DNA of 64,000 bases from Escherichia coli (GCF_003334785.1 NZ_QOWV01000012.1), one strand, 5' to 3'; counted from the stretch's first letter, positions 8,375 to 16,968 are shown. The notes: generated by a model from the sequence alone, not told the origin. A program made the numbers and translations.

Positions 8375-8840
8375 AACAAACAACTCCTTGTCCGGAGAAC
8401 CCCAATGGGGAAAACGAAATTCAATACCGTCGGTAATGACGAAAGGCAGGCGAGAAGGACAAATGTACTGAATTTCATGTAATCAACCACTCTGCCTGTG
8501 AACACACAGACAGAGAAATACCTTCTGATTCCAGGTCAGAATGTATAACGATTACAAATAGTCATCAGCACATTACACCTCTTGAATTGATGGGTTGCAT
8601 AGAAAATATACACCTTAAGTGTAATTAAAATTTGCGGTTAATCAAAAGAGCGCGGTGGAAAGGGGAATATCTGCCGGGTACAGGAAATGTAAAACGCGAG
8701 CCTGTTTCCGGAAAAATGTATCGTTTGCAGACGAACAAAAATAGCCTGGAAAGCGCCTCGGGGAACGAGAAATTGCCGGGTGAGAATGGTTTTGTTAGTC
8801 GCTAAAGTCGGGCCATCTTATCAACAGGTGACGGATCGCC

Positions 8841-9785
8841 ATGACAAACTTCACGACCAGCACGCCGCATGACGCATTGTTTAAATCTTTTCTCACGCAT
8901 CCGGATACCGCGCGGGATTTTATGGAGATCCACTTACCTAAAGATTTACGTGAACTGTGCGATCTCGACAGCTTAAAACTTGAATCCGCCAGCTTTGTCG
9001 ATGAAAAATTGCGGGCGCTACATTCCGATATTCTGTGGTCGGTAAAGACCCGCGAAGGCGATGGCTATATTTATGTGGTGATTGAACATCAGAGCCGCGA
9101 GGATATTCATATGGCCTTTCGCCTGATGCGCTATTCTATGGCGGTGATGCAGCGCCATATCGAGCATGATAAACGCCAGCCGCTACCGCTGGTCATCCCG
9201 ATGCTGTTTTATCACGGTAGCCGTAGTCCTTACCCCTGGTCCCTGTGCTGGCTGGACGAATTTGCCGACCCGACTACCGCACGGAAAGTTTATACCGCCG
9301 CGTTCCCGCTGGTGGATGTCACTGTCGTGCCAGACGACGAGATTGTGCAGCACCGCAGAGTCGCTCTGTTGGAGTTGATCCAAAAGCATATTCGCCAGCG
9401 CGATCTGATGGAGCTTATCGATCAACTGGCAGTATTACTGGTTACAGGGTGCGCTAATGACAGCCAGATAACCGCGCTGTTAAATTACATTTTACTGACT
9501 GGCGATGAAGCGCGTTTTAAGGCGTTTATCAGCGAACTTACCAGGCGAATGCCACACCACAGGGAGCGAATAATGACAATTGCAGAGCGAATTCATAATG
9601 ATGGATGGCTGTTGGGAAGGGAGAAAGGGAAAGAAGAAGGGGAACAGCGCCTCCTCCGATTGTTGTTGCAGAATGGGGCAGATCCTGAATGGATACAAAA
9701 GATTACCGGACTTTCGGCAGAGCAAATGCAGGCATTAGAGCAGCCCTTGCCTGAAAGCAAGCGCGAACCATGGATCGAATACTAA
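8841..9785 (+). CDS. rpnD: Recombination-promoting nuclease RpnD (Rpn/YhgA-like, PDDEXK_7 family), intact
   Basis: 314-aa ORF; N-terminal HDALFKSFL...[10 protein letters not shown] motif characteristic of Rpn/transposase_31 proteins; location corresponds to yjiP/yjiQ. Confidence 0.75.
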
Positions 9786-12277: not shown

Positions 12278-15043
12278 TTGGGTCAATCAGAATACATTTC
12301 ATGGGTAAAATGTACTTCCTGGCTAAGTAACTTTGTGAATCTTAGAGGGTTGAGACAACCGGATGGCCGTCCTCTTTATGAATATCATGCAACCAATGAT
12401 GAATATAACCAATTAACGCAGCTACTCCGTGCAGTCGGTCAATCACAATCTAATATATGTAATAAGGACTTTGCTGCCTGTTTTGTTCTTTTTTGCTCTG
12501 AGTGGTACCGCAGGGATTATGAACGGCAATGCGGATGGACGTGGGACCCTATATATAAAAAAATAGGGATTTCATTTACCGCCACAGAGCTTGGTACCAT
12601 CGTACCGAAAGGGATGGACGATTACTGGCTGCGCCCAATTCGATTTTATGAATCTGAACGACGCAATTTTCTCGGAACATTATTCAGTGAAGGTGGTTTA
12701 CCTTTCCGGTTACTCAAAGAATCAGACAGTCGCTTTCTGGCTGTTTTCTCCAGGATCCTTGGACAATATGAGCAAGCAAAGCAGTCAGGTTTTTCTGCCC
12801 TTTCGCTGGCAAGAGCCGTCATAGAAAAATTAGCGCTGCCAACTGTTTTTAGCGAAGATACTTCTGTAGAACTTATCAGTCATATGGCTGATAACCTCAA
12901 TTCCTTAGTACTTACTCACAACCTAATAAATCACAAAGAACCAGTACAACAGCTTGATAAGGTTCACCCTACCTGGCGAAGCGAGTTTCCAATACCGTTA
13001 GATGATGAAACAGGAACGCATTTTTTGAATGGACTGCTATGCGCAGCCTCTGTAGAGGCTAAGCCTCGACTACAAAAAAATAAGAGTACGCGTTGCCAAT
13101 TCTATTGGTCAGAAAAGCATCCAGATGAGCTTAGGGCGATAGTATCTCTCCCTGACGAAGTTTCCTTTCCTGTAACAAGCGAGCCGTCAACTACGCGCTT
13201 TGAACTTGCCATTTGTGAAGATGGTGAGGAAGTCTCTGGCCTTGGGCCAGCTTATGCTTCCCTGGAAAACAGACAGGCAACAGTTCGATTACGTAAAAGC
13301 GAAGTGAGATTTGTCAGGCAAAATCCATCGGCAGGTTTGTCGTTAGTGGCTCGTGCTGGAGGGATGATTGTTGGGAGCATTAAACTTGATGACAGTGAAA
13401 TTGCCATTGGTGAGGTGCCGTTAACCTTCATCGTTGATGCAGATCAATGGCTGTTACAGGGACAGGCCTCCTGTAGTGTGCAAAGCAGCGATGTTCTGAT
13501 TGTGCTCCCTCGGGACAATAGTACTGTTGCTGGTTTTGATGGCCAATCGAGTGCAGTAAACGTATTAGGACTTGTCGCTATGACTCTGGCGGTTGCTCTG
13601 CGTCAGGCGCTAGCGGGCGTTCTGGGTATCTCCGGCGCAGAACTCGGCTATTCTGTACGCCCGGTCAGACTGGAGGATGGGCAATCGGTATTAGCCGTTC
13701 AGCTTTATGATGTGATCAGCGGTGGTGCAGGTTTTGCCTCCAGCGCACCGGTACACATTGAAGCTATTTTGCAGGGAATGGTGAAACAGTTAGGTTGCCG
13801 CCATTGTGATACTGCATGTAGTGAATGCCTGCTTGATTCCCAGACTCGCCACGATCACGATTTGCTGGATCGCAAAGCGGCGCTGGCCTGGCTTGGCGAT
13901 GACTTCACGTATTACATCGGTTTACCGGATGAAGAGACATTCTCGCTGCCGGATGCCCGCTACTGCCCTGGCGCTATTGGCGATACGATTCGCCGGGCGA
14001 TTAACGAAGGCGCTGAAAAGCTCACCCTGTGGATGACCGGCGCGCCCAATGAGTGGGATTTATACGCCCGTCAGTTCCGCGCGGCGGTTCAGAGCTATCG
14101 GCTAAAAGACAACGTCGAGGTCGATCTTGTTATACCTGCGGGAGTGGATGACCCGGATCTGTTGTATGAACTATCGCAATTTACTGCGCTGGGTGTGCGG
14201 CTGTGCCATGTTGAACAGGATCTGCAATTGCCGATCGTTGCCCAGGTTACCTTTGCCGATCGCGTGATGACGCTGGCTTCTCGCAGCCAGCAGGCAACGA
14301 TTCCGGGGCCGGAGTGGCACCTGAATGACGAACTGGTGGTGCGTAGTCTCGGTTATAAAACGGTAGAACTGAACGAGTTTATTCTGCCGGCTAAAGCCGC
14401 CAACGCTGTCGAGCGGGTCAAAGACATTCAGATCCACAAACAGTTGAATGGACCACTTTCGCAGTTTGGACAACGCTTCTGGGACGTGCTGTTTAACGAC
14501 CATGAAGAAGCACAGTCACTGATGAATAACACGCGAATTACCGGCGTTCACTATACCGATCGCTATCTGCAAAACCCGGTTGCGCTGGCGTTGTTGGGAT
14601 CAATTCTGAGACCGCTAAAAACAAAGCTGACCGATGGCGCTGAAGTGGCGCTGGATACGCTGTTTAAAGATAAAGATCGCCCCGGTAACCGGCCTTTCCA
14701 TGACTGGATGAGCATAGCGGATTTTCAGGATTTCGCTGATCAGTGGTTTGCTGCTGCGCTGGGCAGGCCGATAGAACTAACGGTGTTCGACTCGCCGCGC
14801 GATATCCCTCACCATCGTAAACTGACGGTGACTTTTGAGGATGGTCAGGTTTTGAAGATCCGCTTCGATCAGGGGATGGGCTACTGGCGTATCAACTTTG
14901 CATCGCAATGGCATTACTTTGACTTCCGCGATGACGTTTCTTTCCAGTTAGTCAAAATGGCTCAGGCCTGCAATGAAGGAAATGTGGCCAACAGCGAAGA
15001 GAGCTGGGCAACGGATGTGCTGGTGGAGGTGAGCGCCTCCTGA
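12278..15043 (+). CDS. Uncharacterised 921-aa protein in the immigration-control region; candidate single-gene defence / anti-MGE factor, function unknown
   Basis: Uninterrupted 2766-nt ORF; TTG start at 12278 preceded by AAGGAG 8 nt upstream; 0.5-kb AT-rich leader; intrinsic terminator immediately after the stop; CxxCx3CxxC motif at aa 507-517; no Walker A found by eye. It occupies the slot where K-12 has yjiT/yjiV/mcrC/mcrB. Confidence 0.7.
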
Positions 15044-15052
15044 TGATGTGCC

Positions 15053-15081
15053 GCTCCCGATGTGGTGTCGGGAGCGTTTTT
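15053..15081 (+). terminator. Rho-independent terminator after the 921-aa ORF
   Basis: gctcccga-tgtggtg-tcgggagc hairpin followed by gttttt, 10 nt after the TGA at 15041-15043. Confidence 0.6.
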
Positions 15082-15085
15082 CCAT

Positions 15086-15427
15086 TCAGGCAACTTTCTG
15101 TTTACCGGCAATCACCCCAATAAATTCCTGCACCTGCTTTTGTTTACGCGCCGACAGCTTGCACACCCTGCGCAGCGACTGCATCAGTTCGCTCTCTTCG
15201 GCGGCGGGTGGTTGAGCGGTGAGGACGATGCAGCCTTCCATCACTTTGACATCTACCGCCGTGCCGGTGGCAAAACCGGCGGCTTCCAGCCACTGACCTT
15301 TCAGGGTGATGGCGGGAATATGCGCGTGATCCGGGTAGCGGCTCGCATAACCGACGGTGACATGACGGTTATTTGCCGGAGAGACTTCTGCTTCGAACGG
15401 TTGTGCAATAGAATACGTGTCAGTCAT
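15086..15427 (-). CDS. symE: SOS-induced toxin-like protein SymE (type I toxin, AbrB/SpoVT fold)
   Basis: ORF 15086-15484; ATG at 15427 gives 113 aa starting [52 protein letters not shown], matching SymE. Confidence 0.85.
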
Positions 15428-15497
15428 AACTGCTATTCTCCGATAATAGTGATTGTGATGAGCGGTGCGGGTGTGTTGGCGCACATCCGCACCGCGC
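15421..15497 (+). ncRNA. symR: SymR antisense sRNA (cis-encoded antitoxin RNA of symE), approximate ends
   Basis: Established knowledge: SymR (~77 nt) is transcribed antisense across the symE RBS/start from a promoter inside symE. Sequence shows a TAGAAT -10 at 15409-15414 on the plus strand and a 9-bp stem hairpin (gcggtgcgg ... ccgcaccgc) ending at 15496. Confidence 0.45.
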
Positions 15498-15503
15498 TAA
15501 ATA

Positions 15504-15519
15504 CCTGGATATATCATCA
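15504..15519. promoter_or_regulatory. Candidate LexA box in the symE promoter
   Basis: CTGGATATATCATCAG fits CTG-N10-CAG with an AT-rich core, 77-92 nt upstream of the symE start; symE is known to be LexA-repressed. Confidence 0.45.
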
Positions 15520-15607
15520 GTAAATACAGGGAAAGTCCAGCTAAAAATAGAATAAAATGGTCAGTTCCTGGAATGATTTAAATATATTTATGTGAGTTAT
15601 GATTGGC

Positions 15608-15642
15608 GTGAAATAATAAAAGGCGCACCGGAAAGGTGCGCC
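15608..15642 (-). terminator. Rho-independent terminator of the hsdMS operon
   Basis: Minus strand: ggcgcacc-tttcc-ggtgcgcc hairpin followed by a T-rich run, just downstream of the hsdS stop. Confidence 0.6.
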
Positions 15643-15654
15643 AGAAAATAATGA

Positions 15655-16968
15655 TCAGGATTTTTTACGCGAGGCTTTTTTACCTCCGCTGGCTGCGCGT
15701 TCAGCTTTGATTTTTTCCAGCAACGCGGCGGCGCTGTTTTCTCCGCTGATTAATTCCGGGTTTTCGGCCCGCCACTGGGCGGTGAGTTCACCACGGAACG
15801 CTTTTGCCAGGATGGATTGCGTCAGGTTGTTAACGCGGGCTAAGGCGTTGTTGACCTGTTTTTCTATGGTGTCTGCGTAGGCGAAGAGCTGCTCGACGCG
15901 GCGAACGATTTCGTGTTGTTCGGGGAGTGGAGGAACAGTTATTGGGTATGCAATTAATTTCTGTGCATTAATATTTGATTGACTGACCCCATCAGATTTT
16001 ACTGAGTAGCAATATTGCCTCCCCAAAATGCTATTTAAATGGTAGTTAAGATAGTCAGGGTTTAAATCAGGTAAACATTGAACCCTAATCAAATAACCTG
16101 CATAAATAGCTGGTTGCTCTGATTTATATATGGCTGTTTTCCCGACAAGTTCAGGACTATTTGTACGATTGAATAATACATCATTGTACTCAAGTTTATA
16201 CTTTTCAATTTCTATGGTATCTGAAGTATAGACTAGATCCGTCCAGTCCAATTTTCCGCCCTGAAGATTGCCCATTCTTAATACAGGAATGAGTCCTTCT
16301 TTATTAGACTTAGATGACGTTCCATAACTTGGTTTTTTTATAAATTCCCCAAGTTTGCCTTCTATCCACCCAGACAGGCTCGAATTATCTCTCCAGTCTT
16401 CAGTTAGTTTTCCACTTACCGCGGCACCCAGCACCGCCTGACGAAAACGTTTCAGGATTTGTGGGATTTGCTCAAGACGTGCTTTGGTGCTCTCTACCTG
16501 CGCCAGCAGCGTATCGAGTTTTTCAGCGATGATTTTTTGTTCTGAAATTGGAGGAAGTTGTATTTCCCAAGCCTCCATTCCAGCTTTGGTAATATGTGGC
16601 ATTGCCACGCCGTGAGCCGATGCTTTAAGTGCCTCTGTAATATTCAATAATGCATAATAAGCAAATTGCTTATTAAGTGCAGGGGATGTTTCAATCTTCC
16701 AAATATGGTAGTGATAAATTAGTTTATGATCCCACTTCGACCAATATGGACCAAATGTTGCTGACCAAGCATATAGGAGATCATTTTTATAGCAATATTT
16801 ATCTTCCTGTAGCTCTAAGTTGGAATAAAACCATTTATTCCCTCCATTCAAATTTTGAATTCTGAGAATAGGAACACCTTCTGTGAGCATTTCTTCTTTC
16901 TTATATGCTCTGCCATTGATGAGGGTCAAAACATCACCCAACTGGCATATTTGCCAATTTTTACTCAT
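15655..16968 (-). CDS. hsdS: Type I restriction-modification specificity subunit HsdS (type IA / EcoKI family frame, non-EcoKI target-recognition domains)
   Basis: 437-aa ORF; central (LPPISEQKIIAEKLDTLLAQVESTKARLEQIPQILKRFRQAVL) and C-terminal (EQHEIVRRVEQLFAYADTIEKQVNNALARVNNLTQSILAKAFRGELTAQWRAENP) conserved regions match the EcoKI family; the two variable domains differ; ATGA overlap with hsdM. Confidence 0.9.
   Translation of the reverse strand: MSKNWQICQLGDVLTLINGRAYKKEEMLTEGVPILRIQNLNGGNKWFYSNLELQEDKYCYKNDLLYAWSATFGPYWSKWDHKLIYHYHIWKIETSPALNKQFAYYALLNITEALKASAHGVAMPHITKAGMEAWEIQLPPISEQKIIAEKLDTLLAQVESTKARLEQIPQILKRFRQAVLGAAVSGKLTEDWRDNSSLSGWIEGKLGEFIKKPSYGTSSKSNKEGLIPVLRMGNLQGGKLDWTDLVYTSDTIEIEKYKLEYNDVLFNRTNSPELVGKTAIYKSEQPAIYAGYLIRVQCLPDLNPDYLNYHLNSILGRQYCYSVKSDGVSQSNINAQKLIAYPITVPPLPEQHEIVRRVEQLFAYADTIEKQVNNALARVNNLTQSILAKAFRGELTAQWRAENPELISGENSAAALLEKIKAERAASGGKKASRKKS

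Follow-up and report, generated by a model that had tools for sequence, protein, structure and literature searches.

An intact symE/symR module without mcrBC in a natural Escherichia coli strain

We analysed a stretch of 64,000 nt of Escherichia coli DNA (GCF_003334785.1, NZ_QOWV01000012.1), referred to in the following as the window. Hardly any doubt remains that the region of the window comprising symE, symR and the upstream SOS box is the orthologue of the K-12 symE-symR locus, most likely working as described for K-12. The initial annotation had read the region as an intact symE/symR architecture retained in spite of the loss of mcrBC, and by Rfam, NCBIfam, alignment with K-12 b4347/b4625 and cross-species covariation, all of which agree on the SymR architecture, this central reading is correct. 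The elements are those of K-12 in sequence, SymR has a covarying and strand-specific structure, SymE is under purifying selection, and mcrBC is absent.

Results

symE is intact and under purifying selection

15086..15427, minus strand: symE coding sequence, 113 aa and TGA stop (ORF table)
15438..15441, minus strand: symE Shine-Dalgarno GGAG, 10 nt upstream of the ATG, within the stretch complementary to SymR (read from the sequence)

On the minus strand symE starts with ATG (15427..15425) and stops with TGA (15088..15086). Direct alignment with K-12 SymE is gap-free, with 107 of 113 residues identical and six amino acid changes, and the NCBIfam equivalog model NF010128 ('endoribonuclease SymE') gives 218.6 bits, the cut-off being 132, with profile positions 1-112 of 113 aligned to residues 1-112. 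The intact SymE of 113 aa postulated in the initial annotation is thus confirmed and, judged by its intact ORF and an equivalog score above the cut-off, the protein is a member of the SymE family (AbrB superfamily). None of the PADLOC models matches SymE. We rejected a GTG-extended ORF of 132 aa (15086..15484) as SymE, since the family profile starts at residue 1 of the 113-aa form, and a plus-strand ORF of 153 aa (15062..15523), which is simply the antisense of symE, was rejected as a gene.

The dN/dS ratio of symE versus other alleles is 0.16-0.33, and this ratio, found despite a dS of ~0.2 versus K-12, indicates that SymE is under purifying selection. The dS value (15089..15427) is high for two E. 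coli strains, which fits the position of symE in a region known as a polymorphism hot spot (PMC12707154).

Several further observations concern the symE gene and its annotation. At other E. coli loci (L005 6980..7318, L006 6980..7318 and L007 6959..7297) the cassette boundary lies within the last ~8 symE codons, the resulting SymE having 112 aa and the C-terminus ...GVISSKTPR, and in strain ZYB62 symE overlaps with a truncated DruH gene, and SymE has a novel tail there. Pipeline-annotated RefSeq records with the window allele (L001, L046) list symE with no symR feature, and the product is named 'endoribonuclease SymE', whereas the curated K-12 record (L003) contains symR and describes SymE as a nucleoid-associated protein.

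SymR covers the ribosome binding site and the start of symE

15422..15498, plus strand: symR, 77-nt cis-antisense RNA (Rfam RF01809 and K-12 alignment)
15423..15459, plus strand: SymR hairpin 1, 7+7 bp, 7-nt loop CUCCGAU (Rfam consensus structure and MFE agree)
15462..15476 paired with 15481..15495, plus strand: SymR hairpin 2 (3' stem-loop), 15 bp, loop UUGG (Rfam, MFE)

The Rfam model RF01809 (symR) matches the strand opposite symE over model positions 1-77 of 77 with 89.5 bits (gathering score 61, E 3.6e-17). The comparison with K-12 symR suggested in the initial annotation gave an alignment of this plus-strand region to K-12 b4625 with 72 of 77 nt identical. SymR extends over the initial 6 nt of the symE ORF as well as the Shine-Dalgarno sequence and ~70 nt of the 5' UTR, and the K-12 RefSeq record has symR (b4625) at exactly the homologous position, with a 6-nt overlap with symE (b4347). 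The ~77-nt antisense RNA proposed to lie over the ribosome binding site and start of symE is therefore found at full length, covering ATG (15425..15427) and GGAG (15438..15441), and its complementarity to the symE Shine-Dalgarno sequence and start codon is perfect, as follows from the overlap. By every defining feature that can be tested on sequence, the window SymR belongs to the SymR RNA family (RF01809). Two weak Rfam hits, TarB (located at the hsdS terminator) and snR107 (E 0.36 and 0.95), were dismissed as they are far below the gathering scores.

SymR is predicted to fold into two hairpins with an MFE of -39.1 kcal/mol (z = -5.07), a value matched by none of 200 shuffles. In hairpin 1 the anti-Shine-Dalgarno sequence CUCC lies in the loop. 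The 3' hairpin described in the initial annotation is present, but its stem comprises 15 bp rather than 9 bp and ends at 15495, not at 15496. It is directly followed by CUAAAUACC (15496..15504) with no U-run, and the terminator scan did not call it an intrinsic terminator. The LexA box described below begins 7 nt beyond the SymR 3' end.

Compared with K-12, the window SymR carries five substitutions, three in the loop of hairpin 1, one in the linker and one in the 3' stem. Those in the loop change the Shine-Dalgarno context, which is AUCGGAG in the window and CCUGGAG in K-12, whereas the A-to-G exchange in the 3' stem converts an A.C mismatch of K-12 into a G-C pair.

Promoter elements and the LexA box

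15409..15414, plus strand: symR -10 element TAGAAT, inside symE codons 5-7, 7 nt upstream of the SymR 5' end, identical in K-12
15505..15520, either strand: LexA-type SOS box CTGGATATATCATCAG on the plus strand, CTGATGATATATCCAG on the symE strand, CTG-N10-CAG (K-12 alignment)
15534..15539, minus strand: probable symE promoter -35 element TGGACT, 17-nt spacer to the putative -10 TGATAT (15516..15511) in the LexA box

A TAGAAT -10 element within the first symE codons had been part of the original proposal. It was recovered at 15409..15414, is identical in K-12, and occurs as TAGAAT or TACAAT in 40 of the 41 orthologues aligned below. A simple sigma-70 scan of 14900..15750 called no promoter on either strand, as both -35 elements are weak, so that the promoter assignments rest on the identity to K-12, where two point mutations in the symR -10 element abolish SymR (PMC1891008). 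With the symR -10 identical to K-12 and such weak -35 elements, we rejected the negative scan as evidence against the promoters. The sequence AAGTCCA downstream of the LexA box is kept in nearly all cross-species loci.

The candidate LexA box upstream of symE, also proposed initially, was corroborated. Its positional homologue in K-12 is CTGTATATATCATCAG, with 15 of 16 bases identical, and CTG-N10-CAG is found at the same distance in 38 of 41 orthologues. The bare pattern is not significant in the window (22 matches versus 14.4 expected), so its weight comes from the conserved position. The single difference lies beside the CTG half-site, the window having CTGG and K-12 CTGT (T to G), and could weaken LexA binding. 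The CTGG variant is common in E. coli and also present in O157:H7, 23CRST050, Nord8, 120899 and E. whittamii; it is thus no peculiarity of the window strain, and we rejected it as a distinguishing mark of a degenerate site. For K-12 symE (yjiW) a LexA site in the promoter and inducibility by mitomycin C are described in PMC1891008, which cites Fernandez De Henestrosa 2000 for LexA binding and DNA-damage induction. From the 16-bp CTG-N10-CAG palindrome and its putative overlap with the promoter -10 element we infer that symE of the window belongs to the LexA (SOS) regulon.

The structure of SymR covaries across species

One genome per species was scanned with a degenerate pattern derived from SymR hairpin 1, resulting in 38 loci from about 30 species of Enterobacterales, among them members of Citrobacter, Enterobacter, Klebsiella, Raoultella, Kluyvera, Kosakonia, Leclercia, Lelliottia and Pantoea as well as Escherichia whittamii. 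In all 38 loci the 77-nt stretch begins with AGTCAT, the complement of the start codon, and a SymE-like ORF starts opposite the RNA. The Rfam gathering score was passed by all 17 loci tested, with the same ends and 74-94 bits.

Pairs were counted over the two-hairpin structure in an alignment of 41 distinct SymR sequences. Standard pairs occupy 97.3% of the cells, and double-sided changes occur at 10 pairs, nine of which are located in the 15-pair stem of the 3' hairpin. The observed values for pairing and covariation were reached by 0 of 500 shuffles, and sliding the partners by 1-3 columns as a control reduced pairing to 25-53%. In hairpin 1, 97.4% of the cells are paired and most pairs are invariant, a conservation that is partly imposed by the search pattern as well as by the start codon and the Shine-Dalgarno sequence on the other strand.

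Reading the same pairs on both strands gave 97.3% standard pairs for SymR versus 77.0% for the symE mRNA, and 255 versus 14 G.U pairs. Moreover, the mirror of hairpin 1 is absent from the predicted fold of the symE mRNA leader. The excess of pairing on the SymR strand, together with the missing hairpin 1 mirror, indicates that the structure is selected in SymR.

In some loci the SymE ORF is truncated while the symR opposite is intact, namely in Pantoea persica (L009, 42 aa), Pseudocitrobacter vendiensis (L043, 30 aa), Leclercia adecarboxylata (L038, 83 aa) and L018 (95 aa), with symR of L018 and L038 both scoring above the Rfam gathering score. The antisense RNA may outlast the gene for the SymE protein. 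Two diverged symE/symR copies per genome were found in Raoultella planticola (L033 and L034, on the same contig) and Pantoea gossypiicola (L039 and L040). The 3' hairpins of the paired copies differ in sequence, and within the DNA available type I genes lie beside one copy per pair only (L034 and L039).

mcrBC is absent and the module is sharply bounded

15083..15089, either strand: junction replacing K-12 mcrC-mcrB, 7 bp instead of 2,606 bp (blastn collinearity)
15052..15076, plus strand: terminator-like hairpin and T5 ending the convergent upstream ORF, 9 nt from the symE stop (terminator scan)
15622..15642, minus strand: intrinsic-terminator-like hairpin and U-run after hsdS (terminator scan)
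15655..16968, minus strand: hsdS, type IA (ORF table)

The lack of mcrBC stated in the initial annotation holds for the whole window, as neither tblastn with K-12 McrB and McrC nor blastn with mcrBC DNA gave a match anywhere in the 64 kb. Window positions 14256..15082 are collinear with K-12 (L002) 8566..9394, the 3' end of the yjiV pseudogene, and collinearity resumes at window position 15090, corresponding to 12001 of the K-12 locus (symE). The terminator hairpin at 15052..15076 is also carried by K-12 (L002 ~9360-9386) and, being common to both, forms the left border of the mcrBC slot, which on the right is bounded by the symE stop codon. Between the window and K-12 the last three symE codons differ, but only synonymously. 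On the other side, the hairpin at 15622..15642 separates the hsd operon from the symE promoter. The homology breakpoints of the module are the symE stop (15086) and ~15558, about 38 nt upstream of the LexA box.

Both neighbours of the module have features of their own. The 921-aa ORF adjoining symE (12278..15043, plus strand) is an in-frame fusion with a junction at ~13568..13572. Its first ~437 aa correspond to DruH/YjiT (PADLOC DruH3, E 3.5e-214; NCBIfam YjiT_fam) and its last ~490 aa to the C-terminus of the 2,114-aa DruE3 helicase (PADLOC DruE3 positions 1564-2054 of 2055), so that the ORF is what a deletion has left of a Druantia system of type III; RefSeq annotates it in strain LR-64-2 as an intact 'STY4851/ECs_5259 family protein'. 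In strain 120899 DruE is intact and DruH is N-terminally truncated next to IS621. There the Druantia-symE-hsd block (L001 10729..13647) lies beside msrA/tamAB with IS621 at the join, whereas the block of the window lies beside yjiS/yjiR, an arrangement that suggests an IS-associated rearrangement. On the promoter side, hsdM and hsdR are 96% identical to K-12, and in hsdS similarity to K-12 DNA is confined to the two ends and the centre (15655..15921, 16393..16542 and 16963 onwards). Since neither target-recognition region is related to EcoKI, a different type I specificity is expected in the window strain.

The module is a polymorphic hinge between two cassettes

We surveyed 5,426 complete E. 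coli genomes using the symE/symR block of ~475 bp as query. Any match to the block was found in 2,873 genomes (53%), and in 2,860 genomes the block is covered to at least 80%, being more than 90% identical while both flanks are replaced. Blastn with 11-base words returned the same 2,873 genomes as megablast and revealed no divergent symE in the megablast-negative genomes, so that the absence from 47% of the genomes is real. The K-12-type mcrB-symE junction occurs in 590 of the 5,426 genomes and the helicase-symE junction of the window in 60. Since the block is present in 2,873 genomes and the K-12 junction in only 590, the module is independent of mcrBC. The yjiA/yjiX genes, which belong to the true frame of the locus, are present in 5,383 of the 5,426 genomes (99%).

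At its 3' side the module is followed by mcrBC, GmrSD, a Druantia III remnant or directly by yjiS, and the hsd system on the promoter side is of type IA, IB or ID. These flanks are freely combined, as in O157:H7 (GmrSD and IB), strain A_5 (GmrSD and IA), K-12 (mcrBC and IA) and Nord8 (none and ID). Among the about 2,872 symE-bearing genomes the promoter-side junction is of type IA in 915, of type ID in 967 and of type IB in at least 326, the latter count being too low because hsdS varies. The minimal locus of one inspected genome contains neither hsd nor symE. Several complete genomes, for instance LR-64-2, NCTC9087 and MS 124-1, carry the configuration of the window with 100% identity.

These data modify the initial view that the module belongs to the conserved frame of the locus rather than to a variable cassette. 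Independence from mcrBC stands, but the module itself is a presence/absence polymorphism (53% versus 99% for yjiA/yjiX), and its absence from 47% of the genomes makes it a hinge, not fixed frame. A more fitting description is that of a hinge accompanying type I hsd systems and lying between two independently varying cassettes. A review from 2025 lists symE symR among the toxin-antitoxin systems accompanying the three type I families of the region, and McrBC was found in only 6% of 9,040 such loci (PMC12707154).

Discussion

Drawing on the K-12 experiments for SymR transcription, LexA binding, repression of translation, Lon turnover and toxicity, we infer the following mode of action for the module. 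LexA on the box at 15505..15520, overlapping the symE promoter, would allow symE transcription only after DNA damage. The symR promoter, with its -10 element in symE codons 5-7, would constitutively give rise to a stable 77-nt SymR; in K-12, cloning and detection of the 77-nt RNA have been described (Kawano et al. 2007, PMC1891008), and it is characterised as constitutive, very stable and in about 10-fold excess over symE mRNA (PMC1891008). SymR is perfectly complementary to the symE start codon, the Shine-Dalgarno sequence and nearly the whole 5' UTR, and the loop of hairpin 1, exposing the anti-Shine-Dalgarno sequence, would probably make the first contact with symE mRNA, CUCCGAU in this loop suggesting that pairing starts there. 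A full SymR:symE duplex would then block ribosome binding and lower the mRNA level; in K-12, SymR pairing reduces SymE protein by a factor of more than 7 and the mRNA by a factor of about 3 (PMC1891008). Residual SymE would be removed by Lon, which degrades the K-12 protein (PMC1891008).

SymE is a protein of the AbrB/MazE fold that is toxic if over-produced and was first interpreted as an RNase (PMC1891008). According to Thompson et al. 2022, as reported in PMC11894785, SymE has no RNase activity and binds DNA non-specifically, condensing the nucleoid, and its physiological status as a 'toxin' is disputed (PMC11894785). Growth inhibition, DNA binding and nucleoid condensation are known for the K-12 protein and may be expected of the window SymE by analogy. 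A stable RNA and a labile protein, as reported for K-12 (PMC1891008), are the reverse of a typical type I toxin-antitoxin pair, so that 'TA-like', the wording of the initial annotation, is the right term.

The K-12 pair symE (yjiW, b4347)/symR (ryjC, b4625) of Kawano et al. 2007 occupies the same chromosomal position downstream of hsdS. K-12 and the window have in common the symR -10 element, the 6-nt ORF overlap, the two-hairpin fold and the place of the LexA box. They differ in the 3' neighbour, which is a Druantia III remnant in the window and mcrBC in K-12, and the hairpin that K-12 has downstream of symE is absent from the window. Other LexA-repressed toxin genes whose translation is blocked by a small RNA, as in symE/symR, are tisB/istR-1 and hokE (see also PMC1891008). 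Their toxins are small hydrophobic membrane peptides, whereas SymE is a soluble AbrB-fold protein of 113 aa, and IstR-1 is encoded divergently and is no true overlapping antisense RNA. Unlike the antitoxin RNAs of such pairs, which are labile, SymR is a stable RNA that outnumbers the mRNA about 10-fold (PMC1891008). With the MazE/AbrB-fold antitoxins SymE has in common the swapped-hairpin AbrB fold and, as reported later, DNA binding (PMC1891008; PMC11894785). However, MazE is an antitoxin and a sequence-specific repressor, whereas SymE is the growth-inhibiting partner and, in the case of the K-12 protein, binds DNA without sequence preference.

Against this reading of the locus as a working orthologue of the K-12 pair, the module might be an inert relic of a K-12-type region, its sequence kept only because it lies between other genes. 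The 47% of complete E. coli genomes without the module would be in line with this, as would the truncated SymE beside an intact symR in L009, L043 and L038. Kawano et al. assayed the growth of a symER deletion after DNA damage (PMC1891008, Fig. 7B). An inert relic is very improbable, however, in view of an intact ORF with a dN/dS of 0.16-0.33 at a dS of about 0.2, the preservation of all regulatory elements, the compensatory changes in the SymR 3' hairpin and a block more than 90% identical in 2,860 genomes with both flanks replaced. We regard it as next to impossible that the hairpins are a cis-regulatory structure of the 5' UTR in the symE mRNA leader with no separate antisense RNA. Any hairpin has a mirror on the other strand, and that of hairpin 2 is indeed predicted in the leader (z -3.12), but the mirror of hairpin 1 is absent from the mRNA fold, both the pairing (97.3% versus 77.0%) and the G.U pairs (255 versus 14) favour the SymR strand, the -10 hexamer is retained with the correct spacing, and in K-12 the 77-nt RNA itself was cloned and detected (PMC1891008).

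A wider reading sees symE/symR as part of a mobile type I hsd cassette, moving with and perhaps stabilising the upstream hsd system. Wherever symE was inspected in E. coli, it directly follows a type I operon read in the same direction, this place being taken by the unrelated families IA, IB and ID (915, at least 326 and 967 of about 2,872 symE-bearing genomes). The one minimal locus inspected without hsd is also without symE, and hsd adjoins the promoter in about 15 of the 38 cross-species loci. The block is, however, more than 90% identical across unrelated hsd genes, with homology breaking off about 38 nt upstream of the LexA box, so that it is not co-inherited with any one hsd family, and at least 20 cross-species loci contain no type I genes in the available DNA (9-11 kb in L020, L036 and L044). 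Membership in such a cassette thus appears rather unlikely, if worth keeping in mind. The three hsd families upstream, the hsd-less locus without symE and the homology breakpoint between the cassettes led us to propose, as a decidedly speculative and improbable extension, that symE/symR is a functional partner of the type I systems of the region, with the conserved 475-bp block possibly also serving as a recombination anchor for cassette exchange. If this were true, a nucleoid-condensing SymE induced by SOS could shield the chromosome in the course of restriction alleviation or self-restriction, or it could keep the hsd locus stable.

The orthologue of the K-12 pair identified here is already known as a system, having been characterised since 2007 and having a family in Rfam and an equivalog in NCBIfam, and it is ordinary for a natural strain variant to lack mcrBC and carry intact symE/symR. 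The importance of the finding beyond annotation is therefore small, the setting of the pair in the immigration control region with type I and type IV systems being covered by the 2025 review. For annotation it is useful, as the pipeline records of this allele are without symR and still term SymE an endoribonuclease. As a hinge that cleanly divides two defence cassettes varying independently of each other, the module could aid the modelling of island reshuffling.
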